A stretch of DNA of 64,000 nt, from NCBI GenBank assembly GCA_905178155.1, contig CAJINV010000003.1, forward strand, positions 3,777,600-3,841,599, in the 5' to 3' direction. The position numbers and the translations under genes were made by a program. The notes beneath the pieces are model-generated. The model was given only the letters and a program-made list of their open reading frames with translations. It had not been told where the DNA came from and did no database searches. This DNA comes from Amoebophrya sp. A120. Taxonomy: Eukaryota; Protista; Dinoflagellata. This document shows positions 4,132 to 60,028 of the stretch, one piece after another (positions within the stretch are counted from its first letter, which is position 1; each line of letters begins with the position of its first letter).

Positions 4132-7100
4132 ATGGATTTCGACTATGCACTGCAAATATGTCTGGGTCTGGAAAGTTGGAATGTTAAAAAGGAATGGCAG
4201 ACGCACTGCAATACGCAGCTATGCATGACAAATTTTTTGGCTGCCATGTGTTACGTATCACGCATGGCACACTGCGTTCTTGCGTGACAGGTAAGAGTCC
4301 CTTTGCGTGCCTATGCAACACAGACTCTCGAGTCATGCCAGACAAGCATGACAAAACTGCACTCTTTCAGACCCAGACATATTTGCATTTGATATCGACT
4401 TTTCGCGCACGATGGACTCGACCTTCGAGTCGTCGGTCTGGAGCGAGCTGCCGTATCCTGAGTAAAAACGTCCCCACCCCATAGTTGTCATGCAGATTTG
4501 CGACTACAGGAAGATTTGTATATGCGCATCTCCATGAGAGGCATTTCCAATCGCGTTTTGGGATTTGTAATGCTGTGAACGGGATGAGCAGATGGATTTG
4601 TGATGCGGCTGCACTTGCTAAACTGCACCACACTAAGGACTGGAATTTGTCATGCGTTGCTCCCAAAGCTTCTGGGTTTCTGTTGCTACGTTCCCAACTT
4701 GACTATGGGGTGGGAGCGGTTTTACATATGATATGCCGCCGATTGACCTCAAGATGCGGGGTTGGCACCTCTCCGACGATCCTGCTTGGGGGACGAGTAG
4801 GAACGAGGCCATGCGAAAAACCGCGATTAAGCCTTCCGTATTCCAACAAGTGGCACAGGTACTTATGTTTAAACTAAAGGTTGTTAGATCGAAGACGTTT
4901 GTGCGTCGATCTTCGGAAAGAAAAAGAGTCCTCAACAGGGATGGAGAGCCTATGCTACAGTAAGTACATGAAAAAGACTTTGAAAATGAAAATCTTCTTT
5001 CCGATCAACTCTAAAATCAGTCTTCTTCCTCGACGAGACGGGGGTCGCGCTCGCCACCGGGAGGTCGACAGAAGTCCCCGGATTTTGTGGACACCAGCAA
5101 GGAAGCCTCCGTAAAGTACGACAATCTAATGGCCGCGGACATGGTAGACGACCCCTCTAGCTTGCGGCGATACCAGCTCATACCTGATCCGACCCGGAAG
5201 CGGCGCTTTCCGCCGAAATCGCCAAAGCACCGGACTCCCAGGTTCGTCGTCTTTGGAAAACCAGTTCTTGCGCGGATTTCTTTTCTTTGACAGTGTGGAA
5301 CATGAAAGTGAAACTACAGTAGCTCCTGGCACACTTCGAGACAAAAAAAAAACTGCCATCAACCGCATAATATTACAGTGACTTCCTGAACTACAAGAAG
5401 TTTCAGGACACGCTGCGCCGCAACAACCGAAGCACGCAGCTCACTGACACGAGCGTGGATTCGGTGTTTTCCACTTCGCCTGGCCCCCTCGTGGAGGAGC
5501 GCGCCTACACGATTCACCCGGCGGATACGTATCCCGGCGAGGTTCACGGGAGCGGAGGGCGGAAGTCGTTGCAACGGAAAAAAACCTTATGGATTGCAAA
5601 TATGTCTCGGTCTGGAAACTTGTATTGCTAAAAGCGAATGATAGACGCACTGCAATACGCAGCTATGCATGACAAACTTTCTGGCTACCATGCCTTACGT
5701 ATTCCGCATGGCACGCTGCGTTTTTGCATGACAGGCAAGAGGGCCTTTTCGTGCCTATGCAACACAGATTCTCGAGTCATGCCAGACAAGCATGACAAAC
5801 TTGCACTCTTCCAGACCCAGAAACTTTTGCATTTGATAAACCTTTGCCAGCTACAACACCGACTTGCAAGGCGAGGACGTTGGAAACCGAGGTACCGCTC
5901 TTGGTTTTTCGATCTTTTTCATGTTGAGCGTACTGCTTTTTCAACATCAGGGTTGTCGACACCACGCGCCTATCTACTTTCTCAGCTGCATTTTGGTTGC
6001 TTATTGGTTTAAAGTTAGTCTCGCATCATCATCACCCCTCTACATTTCAGACCCGCAGCGTATGCTTCCACCGAAGAAAAAATACGAGAAGGAACTTCTG
6101 TCCTCGACGGAGAGTAGTTACGTTGCACGTGCAAACGCGTCAGAGCGTCTCAAGCAATCGTATCGATACTTCTTTCTTATTTGAGTTTGTCAACATAAGG
6201 TACAAATACAAGACCACGAAACATGAAATGGAGTGTTATAGACTGAATACTTCTGTATAGTACCCGCATCCATTTGAGTCTCGTTTTGTAGTTGCCACGC
6301 TGACGTGCAACAGGTACGATCCGACACGCAAGCGGTCTCCGCGGGCGTCGCCGCTGGCGGGGCCAATCGACTATTCCAAGATCGTACGAAATATTCCGGA
6401 CGGCAAGCCGACGGTGGATGAGCAACAACAGATGATTGACCAAATGATTCGGGAAGCGGAGGAAGCGAACCGGCGCGCCAACGAGGACCCCCGAGCCGTC
6501 TCCAACGCGATGCCAGGTCCCCCGCCGGTGAAGCGAAAGCAGAAAACGCAGCAAGAGATTGTGCGGATGGGTATGTTCGGGAACGACAAGGCCGGCCGCG
6601 CGAAAGCGGAACGCCACGTGAAGGCCGCCGTGCTCGGGGAAAGTAAGCAGGGCTCATCGTCTGCGGCGTCCGCGAAGACGGGTGGGGGAGCCTCGTCTTC
6701 TTCCTCCGAGTCGAAAACCGTGACGCGTTCGCCCTCTGCAGTGCCCGTGACCACTACATCAAGTACTTCTAAATCGGAGAAGAAAATAGTAACCTCCGGA
6801 ACATCAGCTGCTTCCAGTGCAGCTGCCTCCGCACCGAAAAGCAAAAAAAGCGAACGCAAAAGCAGGAGAATAGCGGAGCCGGAAGATGTTTTGACCGTGA
6901 TATCCAGCGAGGTTGCCAGTGACGTCATGGCGGACGTGTTCGGCGCGGTGGAAACGGTGCTCAAGCCCGAGGAGCCCGAGCCCATGACTCGCAACCCTCT
7001 GATAGAATTGATAACCGGAAAACCTCCCCGAAGGCTTTCGAGGGGTGGCAGCGCGGGAATTTCGCAAACGGGCCGCGCGTGGACGCGTGGGCCACAAGGG

Positions 7101-10100
7101 GCCCGCCTTCCGTCTGGGGCAGTTTCTTTTTGAGAAACAACCTGCCAACATTCCGTCCAACAATAGGGGCAAGGCCCTTGCTTTCTGACTTCCGACAAAT
7201 CTTCATCGTTGAAAAGTGAGAAGCTACGGACTTCTCACTGCGTTTCCACTGGTCTTCTAGAAAAGGAGTGAAAAGTCAGCGACTTCTCGTTTCTGAAGCA
7301 TTTTCATTCTGGAAAAGTGAGAAATCAGTGATTCATTTGTCACTTCTGAAAAGTTTTCATGTTGAAAAGCGAGAAGTCGCTCCGCTGACTTCTGAAAAGT
7401 TTTCATTTGGGAAAAGTGAGAAATCAGTGATTTCTCACTCGGTTTCTCGAACAATCCGAGAAATGGAGTGGGAAAAATGTGATTTCTCACTTTGCAAGAC
7501 TCTCACTCTGGTCGGAGTCGCGTTGACTCTTCCCAGAGTGAGAATTTTTCAAAAGTGAGAAATCAGTGACTTCTCACTACTTTTCTCGAAGGTACCCGAG
7601 CGCCAAATTTCTTCGGGGCTCGGGTACCTTCGAGAAAAGTAGTGAGAAATCACTGATTTCTCACTTTTGAAAAATTCTCACTCTGGAGTCGGACTCCAAA
7701 AAGGTTTCCAGCCGTCAAGATTTCGCGAGAGTGAGAAATCACTGATTTCTCACTTCTTTTCTCTAAGCCTTTCGGGATGTGTAGGCGACTTCTCACTCCG
7801 AGTGAAAAAGCCAGTGAGCTTTAACTTGGTTTTTTGAATGTCTTCGGGAGGCAGCGCGAAAGCTCGCTGCGTGCGAAAAGTTAATGGAATGTCATTCCCC
7901 CACTTCTCCAGCCTATTCGTAAAATGTAGCCAATAGGAGCGGACTTTTTACTCCCTTCCTGAGGGGACCTCTGGGCGAGCCCGAAGTGCAAAGCCAGCGC
8001 GCTTTCGCTTTTGTTGTCAGCGCGCTCGCAAAGTCAGCCGGCTTTGATTGGGGGGGGATTTGTTTTGTGCCGTCGATCTTCGTGCTGCTGCAGAGGTTTG
8101 CGAAGCTTCAAAAGAACTACTAACTTACACTAGCGCGCCAAACTGATCGACTTGGCGCGGATTCTGTTTCTCGAAGGCGTCCGGAGAAATTTTCCGGCGA
8201 AAAGGAGGGGGCTTTTGCGAGTCATGGCGGACGTGTTCGGCGCGGTGGAAACGGTGCTCAAGCCCGAGGAGCCCGAGTCTGCGCCGACGTTGGAGGGCAT
8301 CAATGCGCTGCTGCCGCCCTCCGAGCGCTTCACCTTTGGAGGGTCAAGCTCGTCTTCAGCAGCTTCCTCTGATGAACTCGAGAACTACGAGCTGCAGCCA
8401 GAAGTGCAGCGACAGACAGGGAAGATCACCAGCCAAGTAGAAGGATCCGGTATAGTCCAGTCTTCAACAACAAAGCCGCTGCAAAAGAATCAGGTCGTGC
8501 CACTTCTGGCAGCTGACCCGCTCGACCCGTTGCAGGCGAGCAAAACGAGCACCGACTTGCCCACGATCGTGGCTATTTCCGAAGACGTGGAGTACTACCA
8601 GGAGGGGGATGACGGAGAACTAGAGGAAGAGAAACGCGAACTGCCCAAGTCCACCACCGAGCCCGGGCCCGGGCACTACAACGTGAAGCCGATGTGGAAC
8701 CAGGATGGCCCGACCTGGAGCATGGCGCCGTGCCCGGCCCGGGAGCTGCTCCGACAGGGGGCCACCAACTGGCTGCTGAAGCCCAGCTTCGACCTGGGCA
8801 ACCCGGGACCGGGCCAGTACGGCGACGTGGCGGGCAACAAGATCCCCTCGAAAGCGACCATCTACATGGGGATGAAGCCCGAGTTGTGGAAGCCGGAGGT
8901 GAACGACCCCCAGATTCCCACCTCCACGCACCTCTACAAACCCGGCGGCCCCTATTTCACCATCAAGGGCAAGTTACCGGCCATGAAGTCGTCCGTGACC
9001 TTCAGCTTTGAGTACCGCCCGGGGAAGGAGTTCTACGACAATAGCAAGGTAGCGTTCGATCATCGGGAGTTCTTGGATGAGTTCGGGTCCTACTACAGCC
9101 TGGATCTGTCGAAGGAAGCGAGCCGGTTCCTCTCGCCGGAGAAAACCCGCCGCAAGTTGACCGCCAGCGAAATGGAGCAGGTCCGGAAGATGGAGGCCCG
9201 GGCGCAAGAACGGGTCCGCCACCTGATGGAGGTGGATGTTGCGGGGGAGAGTGGATCAGCATCTCGGATGCTCGAGGCGGGTTCGTCCACCATGCCCGCC
9301 GGAGCCGCGAATTTGTCCATTGAGGGCACCGTGGGGAGTAGTTCTATCGCAACAGAACAAACCCTCAATAACCTGGCGTCCTCCGCGGAACTACTCCGTG
9401 GTACGAGCACGATGAATCCGGTCGGATTCAGCAAAAACGCAACTTCTTTGGAGGACGAAACGCGGGAGCCCGAGGCTTCGGCGACCACCTCAAGGGCGCT
9501 TTATGACACCTCGATCGACAGCCTGGAGTCCAACACGTCTTTGATGTTCCCACCCACGACACGCATAGACCAGCTTCGCAAGGAGCACTACATGAAGACG
9601 AGGTACTTGTTTGAAAGAACGACCCATTTATTGGGGACTCCAAGTTGCAGCTGTGTTGGGCAGACATAGTGCAACTTTTTTTTTTGCATAAATTACAGGC
9701 TTGAGAGTAGAGAGAGTGGATGAAGTTTCTGTTCCGATATTAAAGTAGAACAAATCGTGTACACAGTATAATTTATTTCTCTTTCCACCGACCTACGAAA
9801 AGGTATAAGCCTCCGTCGTACACGCAAATTGGGTTGACGGCCCGGAACCTCGACCGGTACTCCATCGCGGGGAACGACAAGCGCACAACCAGTTTCAACA
9901 CGCGGCCGACCAAAAAGCGGATGGACGCGGACCAGACCAACTGGTACGTGCAGAGCAGCGACTGCCTCATCTCCGCCGGCCTGCGGTACGCCCACCCGAA
10001 CAATTGGGTCGCGGACCCAAAGAAGGGCTTCACCCTCCTCGGCCGCGACGAGAAACCGTTTGCGCTCCCGACCGCGGGAAAAGAGGTGCCGCTGCGCGAC

Positions 10101-10563: not shown

Positions 10564-12332
10564 GCGTTCGCCATGAAGGTCTCGACGACCACTCCGCCTA
10601 TGAAGTTTATTTTGTTTTTGATACACGTCGCGTGCTGTTCGCAATATTTACCCTGGAAGGTCTGAGGCAGATGTTGCATGGTGCCGGCTGTTGCTACCGG
10701 CAGAGCCCTGCGGAGGAACGTCTGCCGAGGTAGCGCCGACTTCCGTCTACAGGCCCCCAGGCGCGGGGCCCGCAGGGCTGCGCGCTCAGGCCCGGGACAA
10801 AGACCGCGCGCTCCTTCTCGACGAGGCTGAGCGGACAGAGCTGCAGCGCGGAAAAACCTGCCCGGCGGCAAGGCCACGGACCGCGCCGGGCCGCGTGCTC
10901 TGGCGTCCTAATGGCGACCCGATCTGTGCCGGCCTTCTCCTGGGGGGATCGGCGGCAGAGACGGGCGACAGCAGCGCGGGCACCCTGGCCCGCGCGGCCC
11001 CTCGGCCTGCCTGGCCCCTCCGCTGCCTTCTCTCGGATCGCCGTCCACTCAGTTGCACAGAGCAAGAGCCAGCAGGCCCCCTGGCAGCAATCGACGCTGG
11101 AGAAATCGGCCAAAAAGCTTCCGGCCTGTTAGCGGCCTGCCTCGCGCCGTTCCTCGGCAGGCCGCGGGCTGCCGCCCCAGACGGGAAGCCTGCGAAGCGA
11201 AAACGCCCGCGCGGCAAGGACGAGCCCACGCGGCACGCACAAGACGGAACCTCAGAAGCGGACGCCGGCGCCTTTCCTCGACAAAAGAACTCCTGCCCCG
11301 ACGTAATTCCGAAAACCGCCACCAACTCCGGCCCCTCGGACAGCAAAGGCCGGCGCTTTTGTGGATTCAGGTCGGGGCGGCAGTTCTGGAAACTGTCCCC
11401 CAGCACGACGGCCGCCAGTTTCCGCCCGTGCTGTGTTTCGTTTTCACGCTTGCGGGGCCGGCCTACGCCTGCGCAATATGCGCAGGCACATGAGGCCCAG
11501 AAAGGAGGCGCCGGCCTCCGCATTCGGGCCCCGCGAGGAGCGCCGCGATTCCGGGGGAAAGCCGGCAGCCGGAAACGGCGAAACCGAGGGACAGCCGTCG
11601 GGATCTCGATGCAGAACCCCGGTCCCGCCATATTGGAAGGGGACTTGGTGCAGCCCAGGAAAGACCAGAAGCCGTTCGCCTCCGATTATTTTGAGAGAGA
11701 ACTCAGAAGCGGGGCCCTGACCGCGGTCGATCTATCCCCGGCGTTGGACGCGATCGGCCCGGACTGGCGAGGTCGTCAGTCTCACGAGGCCCGCAGCACT
11801 GCGGTAGCCGCGTTTTCTCAGAAAATGCCCGCACCCAGCCCGCGGGCGCGCCGTCTGCGCTCGTGCCACAGACTTGGCGGGGAGTGCCGCGGCCGCGCGC
11901 CTGCGATGGCGCGCTCGTGTCATTAGACATCCAGGGGGCACTCGACTCCGTGCGCCACTAGTCACCCGTGGGGGACTGCGCCACCAAAGCCGTGCCGCCG
12001 TACATCCGGCCGGCCCTGTGGTCTTTCCTCCGTGGGCGATGTTTCCGCGCCCGTGTTGCCGGCGGCCACAGCACGTGGCACAAGATCCGCAGCGGCGTCC
12101 CGCAAGGCGGGCGCCTTTTCCCCTGGCTGTGCAGCCTGTGCCCCGAGTTCCTCGAAGTGCGCCTGGAGGGTGTTGCCATCATCATCATCATCTACGCCGC
12201 TTGTGCCTGGAGGCACAAGCGGCGTTCGCCGTGAATGATGGTCTCGGCGGTCACTCTGCTTATAAAGTTTGTTTTTGATACCCGTCGCGTGCTGTTCGCG
12301 CATCCAGCAATATTTACCCTGGGAGGCTTGAG
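10564..12332 (+). mobile_element. Degenerate non-LTR retrotransposon RT fragment flanked by ~100-110 bp imperfect direct repeats (10564-10666, 12222-12332)
   Basis: Remnant motifs FRPCCVS, AVDLSPALDAI (xDLxxAFD-like), SFLRGRCFRARVAGGHSTWHKIRSGVPQG and IIIYA (YADD-like); frameshifted and GC-rich. Confidence 0.75.
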
Positions 12333-43644: not shown

Positions 43645-44463
43645 ATGACGACGCCGCATTTGAAGGTCCTGTTCGTGGGACCGGAGGGCGCGGGAAAGAC
43701 GTGGCTCGCCAACCATTTGTGCGACATGCAGAGTGCGGGTTCGAGTTTGCCACCGACTTTGGGCGTACGCGTACTGGAATACGACGACTCACACGTGCTG
43801 GCTCAGGCCGGCGGAGGTGGGGCGCAAAATTACGACGACAGCGCGCAGCTCTGGGACGTCAGCTCCAAGTTGCCAGATAAGTGCTTCACGGCCCTGAAGC
43901 GCGACATCAGCGGGGTTGTGTACGTCTACAATCCGGAGATAGCGACGCACACAGAACAGCTGGAATACTGGTACGACTCCTTCGGGCCAAGAGCACTAGG
44001 TTTGCCGCCACAGTGCTTCCTGATTTGCCAGGTAAAAGAGTCTGTGGTTTCTGTTTCGTTTTCGTTGATGGTGAGCAAGGAGTTCATGATATTCTTTCGC
44101 AGCAACTTTTCCTAGGTAGATCTACATGTGACGACACTGCAACTTCTACACTCAGATGCTAAAGAGCAACAACATGCGAGACTACGTCGTTCCGCAGAAG
44201 ATATCATTCGCGAGCATACAGCAGCCACTTACCATGACCTGGGAGAACGCAGCAGCGAAGGTACTTGCTTGTTTTTTGTGTTTTTTTTTCGCATGAGAGT
44301 TTACTTCCCCTTCAGAGCCAGTGCATTTGCAAAAAGACATCGGGTTGCATTTTTCACAACACTACAGATGAAGCCGACTTTCGACAAGTACCTTGCAAAG
44401 GTGTACAGGACAGTGCAGGAGAGGCAAAGACAAGAAGAAGAGGACGTGATGAAGATGGGATAA
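43645..44463 (+). CDS. IFT22: Intraflagellar transport protein 22 (RABL5); two GT-AG introns
   Basis: LKVLFVGPEGAGKTWLAN, PTLGVRVLEY, QLWDVS, GVVYVYNP, C-terminal ERQRQEEE. Confidence 0.88.
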
Positions 44464-44900
44464 CTTTCGGCGCCTGTATGTGGTTACACACTGGCCTTTT
44501 TCTCTCGCTCGCTTCAACGATTACGTGGGACTGCCTCGTCTGCGGTTTGTTGGCGACTACACTTCCGATCCAAATGACATCCGTGTTCTGCAGCAGGAGC
44601 ACGGTAGGAAGTCGATCAGTTTTTCATGCAATTCAAGTTCAGAAGGTCAAGGTTGTCCACGACAGAAAAATCTGAGAATGTGTACGAGGACCCTAGGAAA
44701 GTGTTTTTCCTGATCTGGTGCTGAAGCCTCTTCATTTGGATGGGACAGTTTCGAACCTTATAAGTACTTAACTTTAATATGCCGATTACGATTTTAAACC
44801 ATGACGATTTTCCTTCTGATTTTGAAAATTTTCAAATCCAACCCGTATTTCGATTTTTCCTGTTTTAAATACCTCTTCGCTTCTATAGCGTTCAACAAAA

Positions 44901-46250
44901 ATGACGCTTACACCATCCTCTCCTGAGACTGTGGTAAAGAAGGCCGACTGGGCCAGCCGGCTGGCGTCGCCTACCGGAATTGCCACGTCTTTGGGTCTTT
45001 TGCTGTGCGTGACTACGACGCAATACTTCTTCGACCCACCGCAGCTCAACACCGAAGCGGCACAGGCGCGGTTCATTGCGATCCAGGGCGATCAGCAGGA
45101 GGAGAAGAAATTTCTGAATTACTGGGGCACGCCCGACGCGGAATTCGACTGGTGCGAGGCGAATTACGTCTCCACGCTTTCAGTACCGAGACTGTGGTCC
45201 TCCTCCGACGAAACCACCTCTGATAGCGCATGGATCGAGGTTCCGGTGGCTGAATCGTGGAACACGGTCACGTCGGTTCTGTACCTCTTCCCAGTGGTTG
45301 TGCCGTTTTGGAATTATTTCCGCCTTCTGCAGATGAAGTCCGCAAGCGGGGACGCGAATTCATCCAGCAGCTATTCTTACTCGCCGGCAGCGGTGCGCGC
45401 ATTGGTGTTTCTGTTTTGCATCATGATTGGCACCACGCTGTTCCACATGACCTTGCGGTACTGGGCGCAATTGGTCGACGAGCTGCCGATTTACTACATC
45501 ATGCTCAACGGCAATTTCGCAGTGTGGAACTGCAGACGAAAACTTTCACGAAGCGGGAACAAGGCAAAACTGCCTTCAAAAAATCCAGATCGTGTGAGTT
45601 GGGCCCTGGCACGGTTCACGGTTTGCTGGGGCTTGGGCCTGAGCATGGGCATACTGACCACCTTGAGCCCGGAGCGGAAACAACTGCATCAGGTGCTGCG
45701 GGGCCTCATGTCGACCAGCTTCAGCATTCTGTTCGTTCACGAGTTCTACGCCTTCGCCCGTGTTTTCCAGGCGCTTGACCAAGCGACGGGGGAAAAAATG
45801 GCAGCGAGGAAATTTCGAAAATCCTTTGTGGACGCAAGGAGCATGTTTCACCTGGCGTTTTTGGAACTCCTTCTCGCGATTCTCTGCTGGGTCGTGGACA
45901 ACGGCTTCTGCTCGGCGCTGCGCACGCGGCTGCCTTTTTACCCGCAGACGCACGCGTGGTGGCACTTCTGGACGGTGGTAGGCTTGTATCACATGTTTCT
46001 CGTCACGGAAATCGTCGAGCAGCTGGCGGTCGCGGTGCCGGAGGTGGAGGCGCGAGTGGGAGGAGAGCGAGATGAAGTGTGCACGCAAGCAGATTCGTCT
46101 GAGGGGGAAAAGAAGGGCGCTGGTCGCACCGGACCTTTTCCGGAATTGCCGCACGTGGGGACCGTGTGTGGCGGCTGGGTACATATTCTGGTTTTCGACG
46201 AGCCGTGTGAAGATTCCGAGAATTCACCAGCGGAAAAAAAGCAAAATTGA
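44901..46250 (+). CDS. ACER3: Alkaline ceramidase (ACER3/YPC1-like, CREST superfamily)
   Basis: YWG...DWCEANY, AESWNTVTS, FHMTLRYWAQLVDELP, HAWWHFWT. Confidence 0.9.
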   Translation: MTLTPSSPETVVKKADWASRLASPTGIATSLGLLLCVTTTQYFFDPPQLNTEAAQARFIAIQGDQQEEKKFLNYWGTPDAEFDWCEANYVSTLSVPRLWSSSDETTSDSAWIEVPVAESWNTVTSVLYLFPVVVPFWNYFRLLQMKSASGDANSSSSYSYSPAAVRALVFLFCIMIGTTLFHMTLRYWAQLVDELPIYYIMLNGNFAVWNCRRKLSRSGNKAKLPSKNPDRVSWALARFTVCWGLGLSMGILTTLSPERKQLHQVLRGLMSTSFSILFVHEFYAFARVFQALDQATGEKMAARKFRKSFVDARSMFHLAFLELLLAILCWVVDNGFCSALRTRLPFYPQTHAWWHFWTVVGLYHMFLVTEIVEQLAVAVPEVEARVGGERDEVCTQADSSEGEKKGAGRTGPFPELPHVGTVCGGWVHILVFDEPCEDSENSPAEKKQN

Positions 46251-46859
46251 ACTACAAAAATTGCTAGTTCAGTTAGTCATTGTTCTGGCCTTGATGGAGG
46301 TAGCTACTTATCGCAAAAACTACTACGAGCGGACTATGGAATCGGCAACTGTAGCAGTATCTGCTGCGATTTGGTCTGCGCCTGTGTTCCGAAGGAACTG
46401 GTATTTCTGTATTTGCTACAAACTTCGAAAGACAATTTCGTCGATCGTAGACTCGTCAGACCTTGCAATGTGATCGTAGAAGTTGCAGTGCCATTGGAAA
46501 TAATGCACTCAGGATTGATTCTTTTTCTTGATCATATTCGTCAATTGACGCTCGAACTCGGTAATCCAGCTGGGGCTCGTGGCAGCAGATTCGTCGTGGC
46601 TGAATCGTTTGGGACGTCGTGGCCATTATTCGCTGTAAAACAACTTGCGTTCTTTGTTTCAGAAGTGAAGATACCAGTATAGAGTCGTATCTAGTAGATT
46701 TCGTTGGCAGCGCGTGGGCATTTTCCGCCGGCGAGTACATCAAGGTAGAGTAAGTACCTTCGACGACTGGAACCCACTTCACATCCACGTAGCCTTTTTG
46801 TTCATTCGAGCAAAAATAACTCCACAAGTGAACGAAAAAAGCAACAGGTTGCGAACATC

Positions 46860-49010
46860 ATGTTTCGCCTAACCAATTTTGTTGTCTTTCTTGCCGTCTT
46901 GGCGGTCAATACGGTGGACACTTTTGCGCGGAAACTGACGCAGACCCCGCAAACGCGGACCTACAGCAGGTCGTGGTCGTCGTCGTCGTCCTCTGTGTCC
47001 AGTTCTACCTCTACCTTCAACTACGCGAACGGCCGCTCGACAGAACACAAGCACGAGGACAAGCAGAAACGAACCAGCGACCAGGTCAACGATCAACCGC
47101 CGCAGACGACGCGCAAGGAAAGCGAGAAATCGACGGACAAAGTGGACGGTGTGAAGACCAAGGAAATCGCGGACTACGAGAACGCCGCGGGCGGATTCAC
47201 GTTGCCGGAAGCCTGCGCCAAAGCGGTCGACAAAGCGCACGAAGAGGATCGCGCCGACCACTGTGACGCTACCTACATCGGTGACATCGCTCCGGACCGG
47301 GTCAATTGTGCCCAGGAGGACCTGGCGAACTTGCCCCATGCGACCGACAAAAATTGGATGTATTTTGTTTTTCGATAGAGCGAGGTAACAAACCCAAACG
47401 AGAACTTCGCGGTTGAGTTCTCATCCGGCCGGCCGGCCGGATGAGAACTCAACCACATCAGCGGCGGAAATCGACCGGCTGGTCGTCCTGGTCAATTGGC
47501 CCGCCATTCGCTCGGGCGAAAGGGGGGGGGGCGGCCTGCTGGAGACCGACGCTTCCCTCACTCCACTTTCGCCGGGGGCCGTGTGCAACACAAAAACGCT
47601 ACGCGCGCCTGCTGTGAATACAGAGAAGCTACGCTATGCAGCGGGGCAGAAGTTGGAAAATTTTAAAGGTGGCGCATTGTGCGCGCCCGCCGCGGGCGCG
47701 CTTTCATAGTTGGACTGCGCTATGCCTTTTGGCTTCTGGGTGGAATTCGAAAGAATTGAATGCAAAAACATTCGCGGGGCTCGCAAACGCAATAGGCAAA
47801 ATTTCGCGGGGCGCGCAACGCGCGCCCGCTATACGTTGCAATCGCCGGCCCAGAAAGCGCGTCCGCGCGCCTCTCCGCTGGCTCATGCTTGCTTCGGCGC
47901 AACAGTTGGCAGATGCGCCGGATCCGGGTCGGACGCGCTTCGCGCGTCCACCGACTTGCGTGATGGGAGGCGGGGCCTCGCTCGGCGCGCCGGGCAACCA
48001 ATCTCCGACGCGCCGCGCGCGCTGCCCTTTGTTTCTGCCGGCGCCCGAATCCTGCGGCGCGTCGGGCTCCAAAGCTGCCCCCACCCGATAGCAGGGACAA
48101 TGCAAATGGCCTGGGCCGCGCTTATGTGTGCCTCCGCCGGGCTACTGGCGCCCTAGCAATCTTTATCGTTTCCCACACGCGAAGGCGGCGCAGCAGGATG
48201 GCCCGCGCGCGCAAGTTGTACGCTGTTGCTTTGCTTCCTGGTGGGGTTCGTCGGCGCCCGGCCGCAGCCGGCATGGTCACTCAGCCAGCGCTGCGCGCCC
48301 GCGTTGGGCTGTGCCCCCATCCTCTGGGCCCCCAGGCTTATCGTCTTTTCCGGCGACTCGCAGTAGAAGTAGCAAACAACGCAGCTTCTGCTTCTTGGCT
48401 TTAGGCACTTGCCGCAGCTTTTGCATGACAAAGCTCGGGCTTTTTGCGTAGAAGTGAAACTGCGCAGCTGGGGGGTGACAATCAAGAAGAAGAGTGAGGC
48501 CGTCGACCAGGAGGGAAGAAGGGGACCCGGACGACCGGCCGGCCGATTTCAATCCGCCACAGATGTGGTTGAGTTCTCATCCGGCCGGCCGGCCGGATGA
48601 GAACTCAACCGCGAAGTTCTCGTTTGGGTTTGTTACCTCGCTCATATACTTCTTCGAGATTTGTTTTTGTTTGTCGAAATCTACAACTCTGAGACTCACG
48701 TAGTCGGGTTCGACATTCATTTTACACCGATAAATAGAAGACGGCTTCGACATTCGCAAGATAATACTACAACAGGGCCACCTGCGACAGCGAGGTCCGG
48801 TTTCAGGCTCCGCCGCCGGCTTCGGCAGTCTCCGCGACCGTGGATGTGCCGGACGCCCCCGCGGAAGCAACTGCTGCGGATTCTACCCCCGGCAGCTTTG
48901 TGCAGCAGAAATCCCGGTTGGTGGACATGACGCTGGAGGAAATGGCGGAAACCGACGGCGAGCTCGAGGAGGAGATGATCGCCAGACTGCAGAACGAGCT
49001 GCAGTTGTGA
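46860..49010 (+). CDS. Secreted hypothetical protein; exon 1 ~46860-47360, exon 2 ~48765-49010; its intron carries a TIR element
   Basis: Signal peptide MFRLTNFVVFLAVLAVNTVDTFA; open frame YYNRATCDSEV...LQNELQL* after the element. Splice sites not resolved. Confidence 0.55.
47378..48643. mobile_element. Non-autonomous DNA transposon with perfect 82-bp TIRs and 3-bp TSD (ATA)
   Basis: 47378-47459 is the exact reverse complement of 48562-48643; ATA at 47375-47377 and 48644-48646; GC-rich non-coding interior. Confidence 0.93.
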
Positions 49011-51823: not shown

Positions 51824-53975
51824 ATGTTAGAAGTTCTGAAGCTGTTGTTTGGTGAAGAGAAGCAGACGAGCAGCCTGGAAAAACTCATTCCAGCTTTCTT
51901 TCGCACGGATGCCGAAGCAAACGCGGAGTCAGCGCACAATCGAGCGGTAGTCGCGACTGCTGGAGCTATCGCAACGGCGACTATACTTCTCGCTGCATTG
52001 CATAGGTACAATTTTATCAAGGCGAAAAAAACCACCAGAAACAGATTAGAAGACGACAATCATCAAAACAGCGACTCACCAGAAAGAAAACCGCGCAAAA
52101 CCGCATGGTTTCTCACGGAGCAGCTGACGCGCGTGTCAGTGCGCGACCTTGGCGCGAAACTTTTTTTCCGCCAGAGAGACTCGCGTCAGAGGCAAAGCCG
52201 CTTTTCAACCGCGGAAACAAATGAGTCCCCGATCGTGTTCGACTTCAAGCCGGGTACTGCGCTTCTCGCGGGTCCAGCCTACGCCGACCCGGACGCGAAT
52301 AACCCGGTCGCTTACGTACCACCCGCAGGTTTTCGGGTCTACGATTTCCTCTCCAAAGTGGCGTTTCCGAATCCCTCGTCGGATAGAAGAAACCACCGCC
52401 TGATGAACGACAAACAAGCTCCCTTTTTCATCTGCGTCGACAAAGCTCTCGCGGGGGTGGAATTGGAAGACGAGGTTGAAGCCGCGGCACTATACGACCG
52501 GTTCCAGTTCCGTTTGTCCTGGATTACTGCAGTGAGAACTCTCGCGGACGCTCTGGACGAGAAGCAGATTCTAGCGTTTCTCGCTACGGGACTAGGCTTC
52601 GCGTACGACAAGACCAAGCCAGCACGGGTGAACGTCTGGGAGTATGTGAAAGCGATGCAGCTGGCGCACAACTACTTAGTACTGTTCCCATCAGCGGTTG
52701 AAGGAGTTGCTGATGCAGGTGATACTGCCGCTACACCAACAGCGACGCGTACACAGACTCTGCCTTTGGTGCGAGTGGACTTGACGTACGACACCTGGGG
52801 AAACATCAAACAAAGTCTGCGCGCCGGGCGGCCTCATTTGGTGCTGCATCCGGACGTCGAGGCGCGAAGGGATATGAGCGAAGTGGAAAAACAGGCCCTG
52901 CAGCTAGAGGCGATCATTCACGAATACGCAGACAGGTATCCTACGCTACAGCCGACAAAAGAGGGTGGACTGGGCGACAACGCGAATATCTGTCTTGCGA
53001 ACTTCGTGAAGCAGAATGTTGATAATGAAACAAACGCTTCTCTTGGTACAACAGCACCTGCTTCCCCGACGAGAACTTCGCTCACAAGAGAGAGGATCCC
53101 AGCCGTAGCCGCCACCCCACCGCGACGGCCGTCGCTGATGCGGGAAGAGTTCGACGTGCCAGAAAGTGCTACCTCGGTCTACGGTTCCTTCGTGGACGCT
53201 GCGAAGTCAACCGACGCGCTGACGAAATTCCGAAATCTTTCCGGCAACAAACCGCTGAAGAAGCTGGGGAGAGTGTTGACCCTGCGGGAGATCATCTACG
53301 ACGTCGTGGGTAATTTCCACGACATCCAAGACTACGAGGACAAGGCACATTACCTGGCCGCGGCCTCGACCGACGGCGAGCGGCAGGCGGTGATTAACGT
53401 ACTGCGGGGCGTCGAGTGGGGCGAGTTTTTCGGCGTGCTGAAAACCATCGCGAAAAACAAGACCACGGGTGTATGGGAGCGTCAGGATTGAAATCGACAA
53501 AGTTGAAATAACTTGTAATGCATAAAATCGATACCAGTTAGAAGCCCAATTACCAAGCGGCGCATGACAAATTTTGGCACCGTCTAAGTCCAGTTTGTCA
53601 TGTTGTTTAGGGACAGAAGGCGTCCTTTGTCATGCTACTTTAGCAGCTGCATCGCAGACCCCAAACAGGCTGACAGTCGGCCTTACTTGCCATCCCTGCA
53701 AGAGAGGCACTTCATGCCTTGCAGTTTATGCATGAGAAATCATTTCAACTTTGACGATTTCAATCCTGACGCTTCCACAGGGCCGTGCAGAGCCGATCGA
53801 ACGGGTGAAAATGATACGAGAACTGTTTGCGAAGCACGTCACGGATGACAGAGACGAGAAAAGAAGAAGGCTGGAAAGAATGTCCAAACATGGAGCCACC
53901 CATAGCTGTATCAGTTTCATCTGTAAGCTAGTCCATGCTTTGGAGCCTCCCATGGCCACATCTTCAGACAAGTGA
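51824..53975 (+). CDS. Hypothetical protein with N-terminal TM segment; intron 53471-53780
   Basis: 555-codon ORF; removing the TIR intron joins KTTG|GRAEPIERVKMIRELF in frame to the stop at 53975. Confidence 0.7.
53471..53780. mobile_element. TIR introner, family C, with GT...AG ends
   Basis: GTATGGGAGCGTCAGGATTGAAATCGACAAAGTTGAAAT...GCATAAA versus TTTATGC...ATTTCAACTTTGACGATTTCAATCCTGACGCTTCCACAG (~55-bp imperfect TIR). Confidence 0.88.
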
Positions 53976-57472: not shown

Positions 57473-59002
57473 ATGTCGACGGCGGGCATCACGTTGAAGG
57501 CCACCCAGGCGGATGGGTTTTACTTTCCGCCGGAGTTCGACCCGCAAAAACACGGCTCGATCGACAAGTTTCGCCGGGCCCAGGGGTTCGAGCACGCGCT
57601 CGGGAAAAACCGAACGAAAAACCTGCACAAGGGTATTCTGCAGATCCGGTTCGAGATCCCCTTCAAAGTGAAATGCTGCAACTGCGGCAACTTCATCGGC
57701 CAGGGTACGCGGTTCGACGCGGACAAGAAGAACGTGGGCCACTACTTCACCACCCCCATCTACGAGTTCCGGATGTACTGCGGGGAGATCGTGGACATCA
57801 GCCAATCTGTGAACGGCAAAACCCACTGCAACCAGGAATGGGTGATCCGGACCGACCCGAAGAACTGCGACTACGAACTCGTGTCCGGGTGCGAGCGACC
57901 CAAGGGACAGAGCGGGTTTCGCAGCGCGCACGAGATGAAGGGCGTGGCGGACGTCGAGAAGGTGACAGAACTCGACCCTCTTTACATGGATTTAGACGCG
58001 CGACGCGAAATGAAGAACGACCCCATGTTCCGCCTAGAGAAGCTCGCGGAGCTGCAACAGCAGAAGTTCGCGAAAGCGCACCCAGAGCTGAACTATCTTC
58101 CAGCCGCGAGGCCGCAGGTGCAGGACGCGGCGTCTGTCACAGGAGGTGCAGGAGCTCCTTCAGTAACCACGATGCCCTCCTCGTCTTCCTCAACGACAAC
58201 AAGGAGAGCGATGAGCAGGCAAGAAGACGAGGACGATTTAGACGAGGCCGGGACCATGTTCGACCCGAATAACCGTGGCGTGGACGATTTAGACGAGGCC
58301 GGGACCATGTTTGACCCGAATAACCGAGGCAGGATGGCGGGAGCCGGCGCGCCACATCCAGATGACGACGAGCACATTCTGCTCACGAACAAAGATCGGC
58401 GCGAGAAGAACGCGCACCTGCAGGAGAGCATGCTGAATTGCCCGGTGGAGGCGATGCGGAACAAGCGGGCAGCTCCGAAGATGACGACCGAGGAGGCGGA
58501 TCAGCTGCGGGCACAGGAAGCGTCGTTGCTGGGTCCGCAGGAGAAGAGGCGGCGGGCAGACGCGCACTTGCAGGACTTGTACAAGTTGCGACACAAGACG
58601 AATCGCAGCGACTTTTCCGTGAACTCGCAGATGCGCAAGATGTTGCGCACGGACAAGAAGAACGACAAGGCCGAGAAGGATCTCATCGCCCAGACGGGCG
58701 GGATCGCGGGACGCAGCAAGATTCTGGCGCTCGCGAACGCGCAGCTGTCCGGCAACGCCTCGCTGATTGGCCAGCTGAAGCAATCGCGAAATGCACCCGA
58801 GCCCGCGTCGGGCTCCGCGCGGCCAAAGGTGTTCAACGAGCGGCTGCAGTTCGAAAAAGACGTCGAGCGAAGGAAGGTCCTGAACAAGGACACGGTTTTG
58901 CCGCGGGCGCAACAGCGGTCCGGGAACTTCGGAAAGATGGAAGATAAATTTGCGCTCTTCAAGGCGTGTCAGTCCCAGATCGGACGCGATCGACGGAAAT
59001 GA
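57473..59002 (+). CDS. CCDC130: Splicing factor YJU2B/CCDC130 (CWC16 family)
   Basis: FYFPPEFDPQKHGS, GILQIRFEIPFKVKCCNC, TRFDADKKNVGHYFTTPIYEFRM, IRTDPKNCDYELVSG, DPMFRLE. Confidence 0.9.
   Translation: MSTAGITLKATQADGFYFPPEFDPQKHGSIDKFRRAQGFEHALGKNRTKNLHKGILQIRFEIPFKVKCCNCGNFIGQGTRFDADKKNVGHYFTTPIYEFRMYCGEIVDISQSVNGKTHCNQEWVIRTDPKNCDYELVSGCERPKGQSGFRSAHEMKGVADVEKVTELDPLYMDLDARREMKNDPMFRLEKLAELQQQKFAKAHPELNYLPAARPQVQDAASVTGGAGAPSVTTMPSSSSSTTTRRAMSRQEDEDDLDEAGTMFDPNNRGVDDLDEAGTMFDPNNRGRMAGAGAPHPDDDEHILLTNKDRREKNAHLQESMLNCPVEAMRNKRAAPKMTTEEADQLRAQEASLLGPQEKRRRADAHLQDLYKLRHKTNRSDFSVNSQMRKMLRTDKKNDKAEKDLIAQTGGIAGRSKILALANAQLSGNASLIGQLKQSRNAPEPASGSARPKVFNERLQFEKDVERRKVLNKDTVLPRAQQRSGNFGKMEDKFALFKACQSQIGRDRRK
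58231..58330 (+). repeat. In-frame 51-bp tandem duplication (DDLDEAGTMFDPNNRG x2)
   Basis: Copies start at 58231 and 58282 and are nearly identical. Confidence 0.92.
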
Positions 59003-59489
59003 TATATAGATGTTTTTTTCCAGCACAAGCGACAGTATTTCTTGACCGATTCCTGCCTGCTGCGCCCTGGTGGTGTGCGACAGGAGAGGCGGTGTTACCA
59101 AACTGGTCTTTTTTGTTACCCTGTGTTGACAAGAATAGAAACGAGTTACAACAGACTACCCCGGCGGTTCAGTTATGTACAAAGTGCAGGTCACCAGGAC
59201 TTGTTTCAATTTTGATGCTGTCACAGCGTTTTCTAGACCAAGGGCTGTTCATTGGTTGTTTTTGTCGGTGAAAGGAGCGATCAGTCGTGGCTGGCTGACC
59301 CAACCTGGATCTTCATGATATGCATCGGTAGCGTATCTGGAAGAAGATACGAGGGGAAGAAAAGCGATCACGATTTAATGATGAGCAAAGCTAGATCGAG
59401 GTCTCTTGTTTGTTGCCGAGGTGCTGCAAGTTCCGTGACGAGTGCGTGTGTATCGTGCACATCAGTATTTCATGTTGCTCCTCAATTCC

Positions 59490-60028
59490 GCGATGCATTT
59501 CCTGACCCTCGAGCCTTTTTCGTGCTTGCAGTAGGTCAAGTAGCCATCGCAATACTATTTCGTGAGTTTTTTCTGCAGATTTTCTATGACCAGAGGTTTC
59601 ATCTGATACTTCCACGTCTGCACTGCAGATCTCACTACAACTGTGGAATTTGTTTTTTATGCGCCTCAATTTGAATTTATTTCGCGATGCATTTCCTGAC
59701 CCTCGAGCGGATTGTTTGCTTGCAGTAGGTCAAGTAGCCATCGCAATACTGTTTCGTGAGTTCTTTCTGCAGATTTTCTATGACCAGAGGTTTCATCTGA
59801 TACTTCCGCGTCTGCACTGCAGATCTCACTACAACTGTCGAATTTGTTTTTTATGCGCCTCAATTTGAATTAATTTTGCGATGCATTTCCTGACCCTCGA
59901 GCGTATTGTCTGCTTGCAGTAGGTCAAGTAGCCATCGCAATACTGTTTCGTGAGTTTTTTCTGCAGATCTTCTATGACCAGAAGTTTCATCTCATACTTC
60001 CACGTCTGCACTGTAGATCTCACTACAA
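59490..60028. repeat. Intergenic tandem repeat, 194-bp unit, ~2.8 copies
   Basis: CGATGCATTTCCTGACCCTCGAGC at 59491, 59685 and 59879. Confidence 0.92.

Follow-up and report, generated by a model that had tools for sequence, protein, structure and literature searches.

We show that a 1244-bp element bounded by terminal inverted repeats (TIRs) interrupts an exon of an expressed gene of Amoebophrya sp. A120, and that its removal as an intron leaves a 16-residue tandem duplication in the encoded protein. The locus lies in a 64,000-nt stretch of contig CAJINV010000003.1 (positions 3,777,600 to 3,841,599; assembly GCA_905178155.1), which was analyzed as a whole and is called the window; coordinates below are window positions. 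The intron consists of the element and five flanking bases, the duplicated block is present twice in what we judge to be spliced RNA, and related proteins carry it once. The duplication is real and expressed, and it most likely goes back to one accident in an element of a known kind. We consider the chances about even that one complete account holds, in which the element is spliced with five flanking bases, the duplication is kept, and the long flanking copy arose once by a template switch at a short microhomology.

Anatomy of the element and its flanking repeat

The insertion is bounded by an exact 57-nt repeat. Self-comparison of the window confirms the perfect flanking duplication reported in a preliminary description of this DNA: 6924-6980 equals 8221-8277, and the match extends neither way. 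The number of repeats this long expected by chance in 64 kb is about 1e-25. The block translates to VMADVFGAVETVLKPEEPE. An exact 13-nt inverted repeat pairs 6982-6994 with 8215-8227 and, as had been described, the right copy shares its first 7 nt with the end of this inverted repeat. The repeat and the TIR of the proposed ~1.25-kb insertion are real, but its limits differ from those first given. The element occupies 6983-8226. Of the seven bases described as overlapping, six form the end of the element itself, and the added host DNA measures 53 nt (1297 - 1244), of which 51 nt are exact, followed by one mismatch and one match.

The right end of the element was placed at 8226 because four contigs from a DNA-like run (X1) track it to this position and then diverge into unrelated sequence. 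The left end was placed at 6983 by symmetry with the right end. The termini read CAT-N7-AA on the left and CAT-N7-AAAA on the right, compared with a published motif of TAT-N7-AAA. They share the register of the TAT-N7-AAA ends of five neighboring TAT..ATA elements, each of which has a perfect 5-bp duplication (1094-1347, 1379-1646, 4144-4394, 4454-4733, and 5588-5838). Among the other clear introner-like elements in the window, five of six have perfect 5-bp duplications and the sixth matches at three of five positions. The 5 nt abutting the 1244-bp element on each side differ (2/5 match), and 6978-6982 together with 8275-8279 is a candidate for the original 5-bp target duplication.

The element is repetitive and has no transposase gene, its longest stop-free stretch in six frames being 112 codons. 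Its GC content is 0.49, against 0.60 in the flanking exons. Summed X1 contig depth, which is not taken as a copy count, is 86-486 within the insert versus 24-27 on its flanks, and X1 variant letters are many and confined to the element interior. The motif of the internal array has 15 matches in the element versus eight in the remaining ~62.8 kb of the window. The subterminal 8-nt motif is a possible transposase-binding site. The 12-13 nt TIR pairs in both RNA and DNA folds. An RNA contig (run X3, record 12) resembles the element's left 63 nt (6982-7044) with six differences and then diverges; it is from a related subfamily with a common left end. The internal motif has no matches in the viral contigs and none in the metagenome contigs searched. 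A search of 12 of the 14 supplementary files of PMC12130899, which may contain no sequences, turned up none of the element motifs.

The splice joint and the retained duplication

The intron removed at this locus is fixed to a single placement. Two runs, X3 and X4, from two samples, each contain one 61-nt contig that reads 6951-6981 and then 6934-6963 (= 8231-8260). The joint 6981|8231 is thus present in both of the RNA-like contig runs that cover the gene. No run is recorded as RNA, and the RNA status of X3 and X4 rests on intron skipping: their contigs omit the GT..AG introns 6160-6313 and 9603-9802, and they are therefore judged to be spliced RNA. A shift test shows that the joint cannot be moved. 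Furthermore, 6982-8230 is the sole placement that fits a public 1066-residue protein (P0030; source label Amoebophrya sp. A120), which matches the interrupted gene at 100%. The preliminary description had offered two introns, GT..GA at 6924-8220 and GA..AG at 6972-8268; neither agrees with the RNA contigs and the public gene model, which give 6982-8230.

Splicing at this joint produces a net gain of 48 nt, in frame, and hence a 16-residue tandem duplication that reads ...VFGAVETVLKPEEPE-H-VFGAVETVLKPEEPE-SAPT. The sequence of P0030, ...KPEEPE-H-VFGAVETVLKPEEPE-SAPT, agrees exactly with the predicted duplication. It had been suggested that removal of 6981-8220 would leave a 19-residue duplication, and that RNA should be used to count copies of the block. 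Two copies are indeed joined in the X3 and X4 contigs, but the observed joint leaves 16 residues, neither 19 nor none. In X3, the depth at the joint is 57.2 versus 61.6 in single-pass sequence (~0.93).

The retained repeat carries information on how the cuts are chosen. There are 58 registers that would restore the old protein, including the GT..GA and GA..AG readings, and none of them is the observed joint. The cuts fall at the hairpin and the long repeat is retained despite these 58 restoring registers, which argues against restoration guided by the repeat.

The host gene encodes a protein with PGPG repeats and a weak SHIPPO-repeat match below the Pfam cut-off. Mapped on the window, P0030 implies eight introns, five readable as GT..AG and three bounded by inverted repeats. 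A homolog search found none at near lengths, and a search at longer lengths gave three proteins. Two related proteins (P0031 and P0032) have a single copy of the block, within a poorly conserved linker. V-M-A-D is also present in P0032, and so the V-M codons at 6924-6929 are ancestral.

Table 1. Window positions of the element, its host gene and the comparison introners.
Feature	Position	Strand	Basis or remark
Non-autonomous TIR element (introner-like), 1244 bp	6983..8226		X1 contigs; multi-copy in genome
Left TIR, CAT-N7-AA register	6983..6994	+	Boundary inferred from right-end symmetry and neighbors' TAT-N7-AAA register
Right TIR	8215..8226	-	End set by loose ends of four contigs
Host codons V-M-(A), equal to element's last 6 nt plus next base	6924..6930	+	Likely microhomology
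Duplicated host DNA, left copy	6930..6982	+	51 nt exact, then 2 nt with one mismatch
Duplicated host DNA, right copy	8227..8279	+	
Intron removed	6982..8230	+	1249 nt, CC..GG; element plus 1 nt left and 4 nt right
Upstream exon	6314..6981	+	RNA contigs, P0030
Downstream exon, starting with retained second block copy	8231..9602	+	RNA contigs, P0030
Array of repeated, partly palindromic motif	7179..7800		Includes palindrome with 75-nt arms, 7533-7686
Subterminal 8-nt motif	7015..7022	+	Mirrored at 8190-8197 on other strand; 32 and 29 nt from ends
Control introner, same gene	4454..4733		5-bp duplication; intron = element + 5
Control introner, same gene	5588..5838		5-bp duplication; intron = element + 5
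Introner with decayed 5-bp duplication (3/5 match)	53472..53779		Splice-register test

Origin of the long flanking copy

The preferred history has two steps. The element would first have inserted with a 5-bp target duplication (now 6978-6982 and 8275-8279) and would have been spliced without a scar. Later, during replication or repair, a strand ending at the right end of the element would have paired with the identical 6-7 nt at 6924-6930. The element hairpin, whose terminal pairs form in the DNA fold, would have drawn the two pairing sites together. The switched strand would then have copied 48 nt and rejoined at the old 5-bp repeat. Splicing cuts were likely set by the hairpin ends and not by the repeat, with only 5 of the 53 extra bases removed. 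The allele would have been tolerated because 48 is divisible by 3 and the duplication falls in a linker of low conservation.

Both the rarity of the microhomology and its age are consistent with this history. A 6-nt match to the element end within 60-100 nt upstream is found at 1.7-2.8% of window positions; because a match that near is rare, homology likely chose the breakpoint. Together with the ancestral V-M-A-D codons, this supports one of the two mechanisms first proposed, end-target microhomology, as the likely cause of the duplication; the reading as a TIR DNA element in an exon is likewise borne out. Moreover, 53 is 5 + 48, and the one position at which the copies differ lies among the 5 nt presumed to be older, which slightly favors two steps over a one-ended insertion.

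Such a one-ended insertion is the strongest rival, though we regard it as rather unlikely. Here, a transposase would have joined the left end only, and the free right end would have been repaired by microhomology at the 6-nt match 53 nt upstream, with splicing just as in the preferred history. This yields the same product and accounts for microhomology at one junction and a clean junction at the other; repair through microhomology has been documented in maize Ac, where it acts on transposition intermediates (PMC4270019). It predicts, however, 53 identical nt at birth, and a mismatch in the last 5 nt, expected by chance about once in ten, counts weakly against it.

Appreciably less probable is a family in which long, variable duplications are routine, the product of widely staggered strand transfer, with the end-target identity due to chance or target preference. 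Precedents are IS1549 and IS1634, which give repeats of 8-514 bp (PMC2266710). The termini also fit the CAT-N7-AA start of IS231 (PMC2266710), a resemblance only, as the later TAA is absent. The contigs used here derive from 31-letter words, as their 30-nt overlaps show, such that one entering a repeat of at least 31 nt should stop ~30 nt beyond the element. In the four contigs that follow the right end of other copies, the median loose length is 255, a cap that also stands for a loose end of 952 nt, and so at least two of the four run on. At least two of these four copies appear to have no duplication as long as 31 nt, although lengths of 6-30 nt would fit the contigs as well. A family-wide use of widely staggered nicks, the other mechanism first proposed, is disfavored. 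In addition, splicing takes exactly the element plus 5, and a 6-nt identity at an independently fixed position has p ~2.6e-4. Among 41 Amoebophrya rows (of 118) of a published family table, the 26 that state a duplication length all give 2-6, as we read its columns (PMC12130899).

Two further routes are very improbable even when taken together: a staggered double-strand break filled by a captured, excised element, as in Daphnia, or insertion into an existing tandem repeat. Introns born by repair have flanking direct repeats (PMC4202315), but those of Daphnia are 4-12 bp, and the element here is intact to both ends. As to an existing repeat, the window does hold another in-frame 51-nt tandem repeat without an element. 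At our locus, sequence from upstream carries on in the right flank beyond the 48-nt unit, and the 5-nt stretches beside the element do not match; neither is expected from insertion into an existing repeat, which is therefore disfavored. Least credible of all is an assembly artefact: among the DNA contigs listed none spans either junction and X1 may be the assembly source, but the block occurs twice in RNA of two samples, its end joined to its start exactly as the genome layout predicts, and a shared 47-nt contig has ~2x the flank depth in X3.

Several points weigh against the two-step history and the splicing that it assumes. An aberrant insertion in one step would give the same product as the two-step history, and a single mismatch tells them apart. 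The family's normal duplication length of 5 is inferred from splice arithmetic and from the neighbors; the comparison with other copies that had been proposed extends to their right flanks and bears on duplications of 31 nt or more. The termini are CAT and not TAT. One related RNA contig shares the C at 6982, so that the left end could sit one base further out. P0030 may derive from the same RNA and would then add no independent support. In X4, the joint depth is 11.2 versus 19.9 single-pass (~0.56), and a minor single-copy isoform, which contigs would not detect, is possible. Finally, there is no GT..AG among the 58 restoring registers, and the locus cannot show that a canonical pair was ignored.

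Cut register, related systems and significance

In public gene models, three neighboring introners are likewise removed as the element plus five bases, among them the two other introners of the same gene (285 = 280 + 5 and 256 = 251 + 5). At the third, 53472-53779, a public protein (P0033; KTTGRAEP) requires element + 5. It rules out register 0/+5 and permits registers -1/+4 through -5/0; P0033 thus agrees with a fixed -1/+4 rule without singling out -1/+4. A ruler measured from the actually paired stem (0/+3) was rejected, as it would take element + 3 at this intron. Published excesses of GT and AT donors were dropped as support for a register, since aligners favor such ends. Taken by itself, the idea of a hairpin ruler that cuts 1 nt ahead of the inverted repeat and 4 nt behind it, independently of the flanking sequence, is in our view slightly more likely than not.

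The element resembles previously described Amoebophrya introners while departing from them in its flanks. Those introners have an 8-20 nt inverted repeat that joins the intron ends, a TAT-N7-AAA motif and 3-5 nt border repeats whose position varies (Farhat et al. 2021, PMC7789003). Like them, the element is repeated and non-coding, with an inverted repeat that pairs the ends, non-canonical splice sites and a register of a triplet, 7 nt and a run of As. Unlike them, it has a flanking repeat of 51-53 nt and CAT termini, and its splicing leaves 48 nt where theirs restores the site. The same survey covers introns of 40-1000 bp with repeats of 3-8 nt and leaves the border position unresolved (PMC7789003); here, the intron is 1249 nt and its border position is fixed. 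In sum, this is an RNA-supported non-canonical intron with a 12-13 nt inverted repeat, genomic repetition and no transposase, but without a 3-5 nt border direct repeat (2/5 match; 51-53 nt instead). The copy works like an Amoebophrya introner yet is a variant.

Residue gain or loss upon insertion is known from some introners (Gozashti et al. 2025, PMC12130899, Fig. S8 legend). The listed duplications there are 2-6 nt, and a 16-residue tandem copy is unmentioned in the parts of that paper that cover this legend and 41 of 118 table rows. Duplications of 3-8 nt have been reported in other dinoflagellates (Roy et al. 2023 preprint). In a literature search that did not extend to figures or to most subscription journals, neither this locus nor a fixed register came up, nor did any Amoebophrya introner with a repeat of ~50 nt.

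More distant systems share single features. Nonconventional introns of euglenids, a different lineage, likewise derive from transposons and are closed by a hairpin whose stem keeps a set distance to the cuts, but their stem lies at +4 to +6 / -8 to -6, where a pyrimidine|purine rule applies, compared with +2 / -5 here (PMC11282704). IS1549 and IS1634 also combine TIRs with direct repeats tens of bases long, but they are prokaryotic and autonomous and the trait is family-wide (PMC2266710); the element here lacks a transposase, and its other copies appear to have short duplications. Eukaryotic elements with long or variable target duplications include Dualen-4b, R9 LINEs and Replitrons (PMC9977147, PMC10288648), but they belong to the retroelements or to the HUH elements, which have terminal direct repeats, and the element here has terminal inverted repeats and no open reading frame (ORF). 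A non-LTR retroelement such as Dualen or R9 was rejected on the TIRs and the lack of both an ORF and a tail. A Replitron was rejected because the ends are inverted, not direct repeats with a right-end hairpin (PMC10288648). A Daphnia-type repair-born intron (4-12 bp repeat, non-transposon filler) does not fit an intact multi-copy TIR element with a 51-53 nt repeat. In Crypton-like integration, a tyrosine recombinase integrates a circle at a 6-7 nt core, and the duplicated piece of target is carried in all copies. Such integration was rejected here, as the sequence beyond 8226 in other copies is unrelated.

The window contains other repeats. Two in-frame 51-nt tandem copies, with no intervening element, lie at 58231-58330 in a Yju2/CCDC130 ORF. 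The repeated motif is absent from all four homologs checked, and the nearest named homologs of the window's Yju2 protein carry the Amoebophrya label. This repeat could be the footprint of a similar event. A 2.36-kb stretch at 44135-46490 is bounded by 15-nt exact inverted repeats starting CACTG, has no clear target duplication and encloses a 453-codon, membrane-protein-like ORF (44889-46250). At 47378-48643, a 1266-bp element has 82-nt exact TIRs with a 44-nt palindrome and ATA/ATA flanks. There is also a tandem repeat at 59484-60028 (unit 194 nt, 2.8 copies, 93% matches) and a dispersed repeat pair of 75% identity (10564-10666 and 12222-12332).

The locus bears on how Amoebophrya introns are cut. 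This genus has tens of thousands of non-canonical introns and no U1 snRNA has been detected, so that the mode of splicing is an open question (PMC7789003, PMC11282704). At ordinary introners, the short repeat lets the joint slide over at least six equivalent positions, which hides the cuts in RNA. The non-sliding joint described here makes the cut register readable and is thus a natural experiment on the cutting of hairpin introns, yielding a precise and testable -1/+4 rule. In addition, an intron of transposon origin has here fixed a 16-residue duplication in a protein that is expressed. We think it doubtful that such a ruler combines with a CAT-ended family that often makes long duplications, with in-frame protein tandem repeats recurring as a result and the Yju2 51-nt repeat as one footprint. 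If this were true, insertion followed by ruler splicing would be a recurrent source of in-frame protein repeats.

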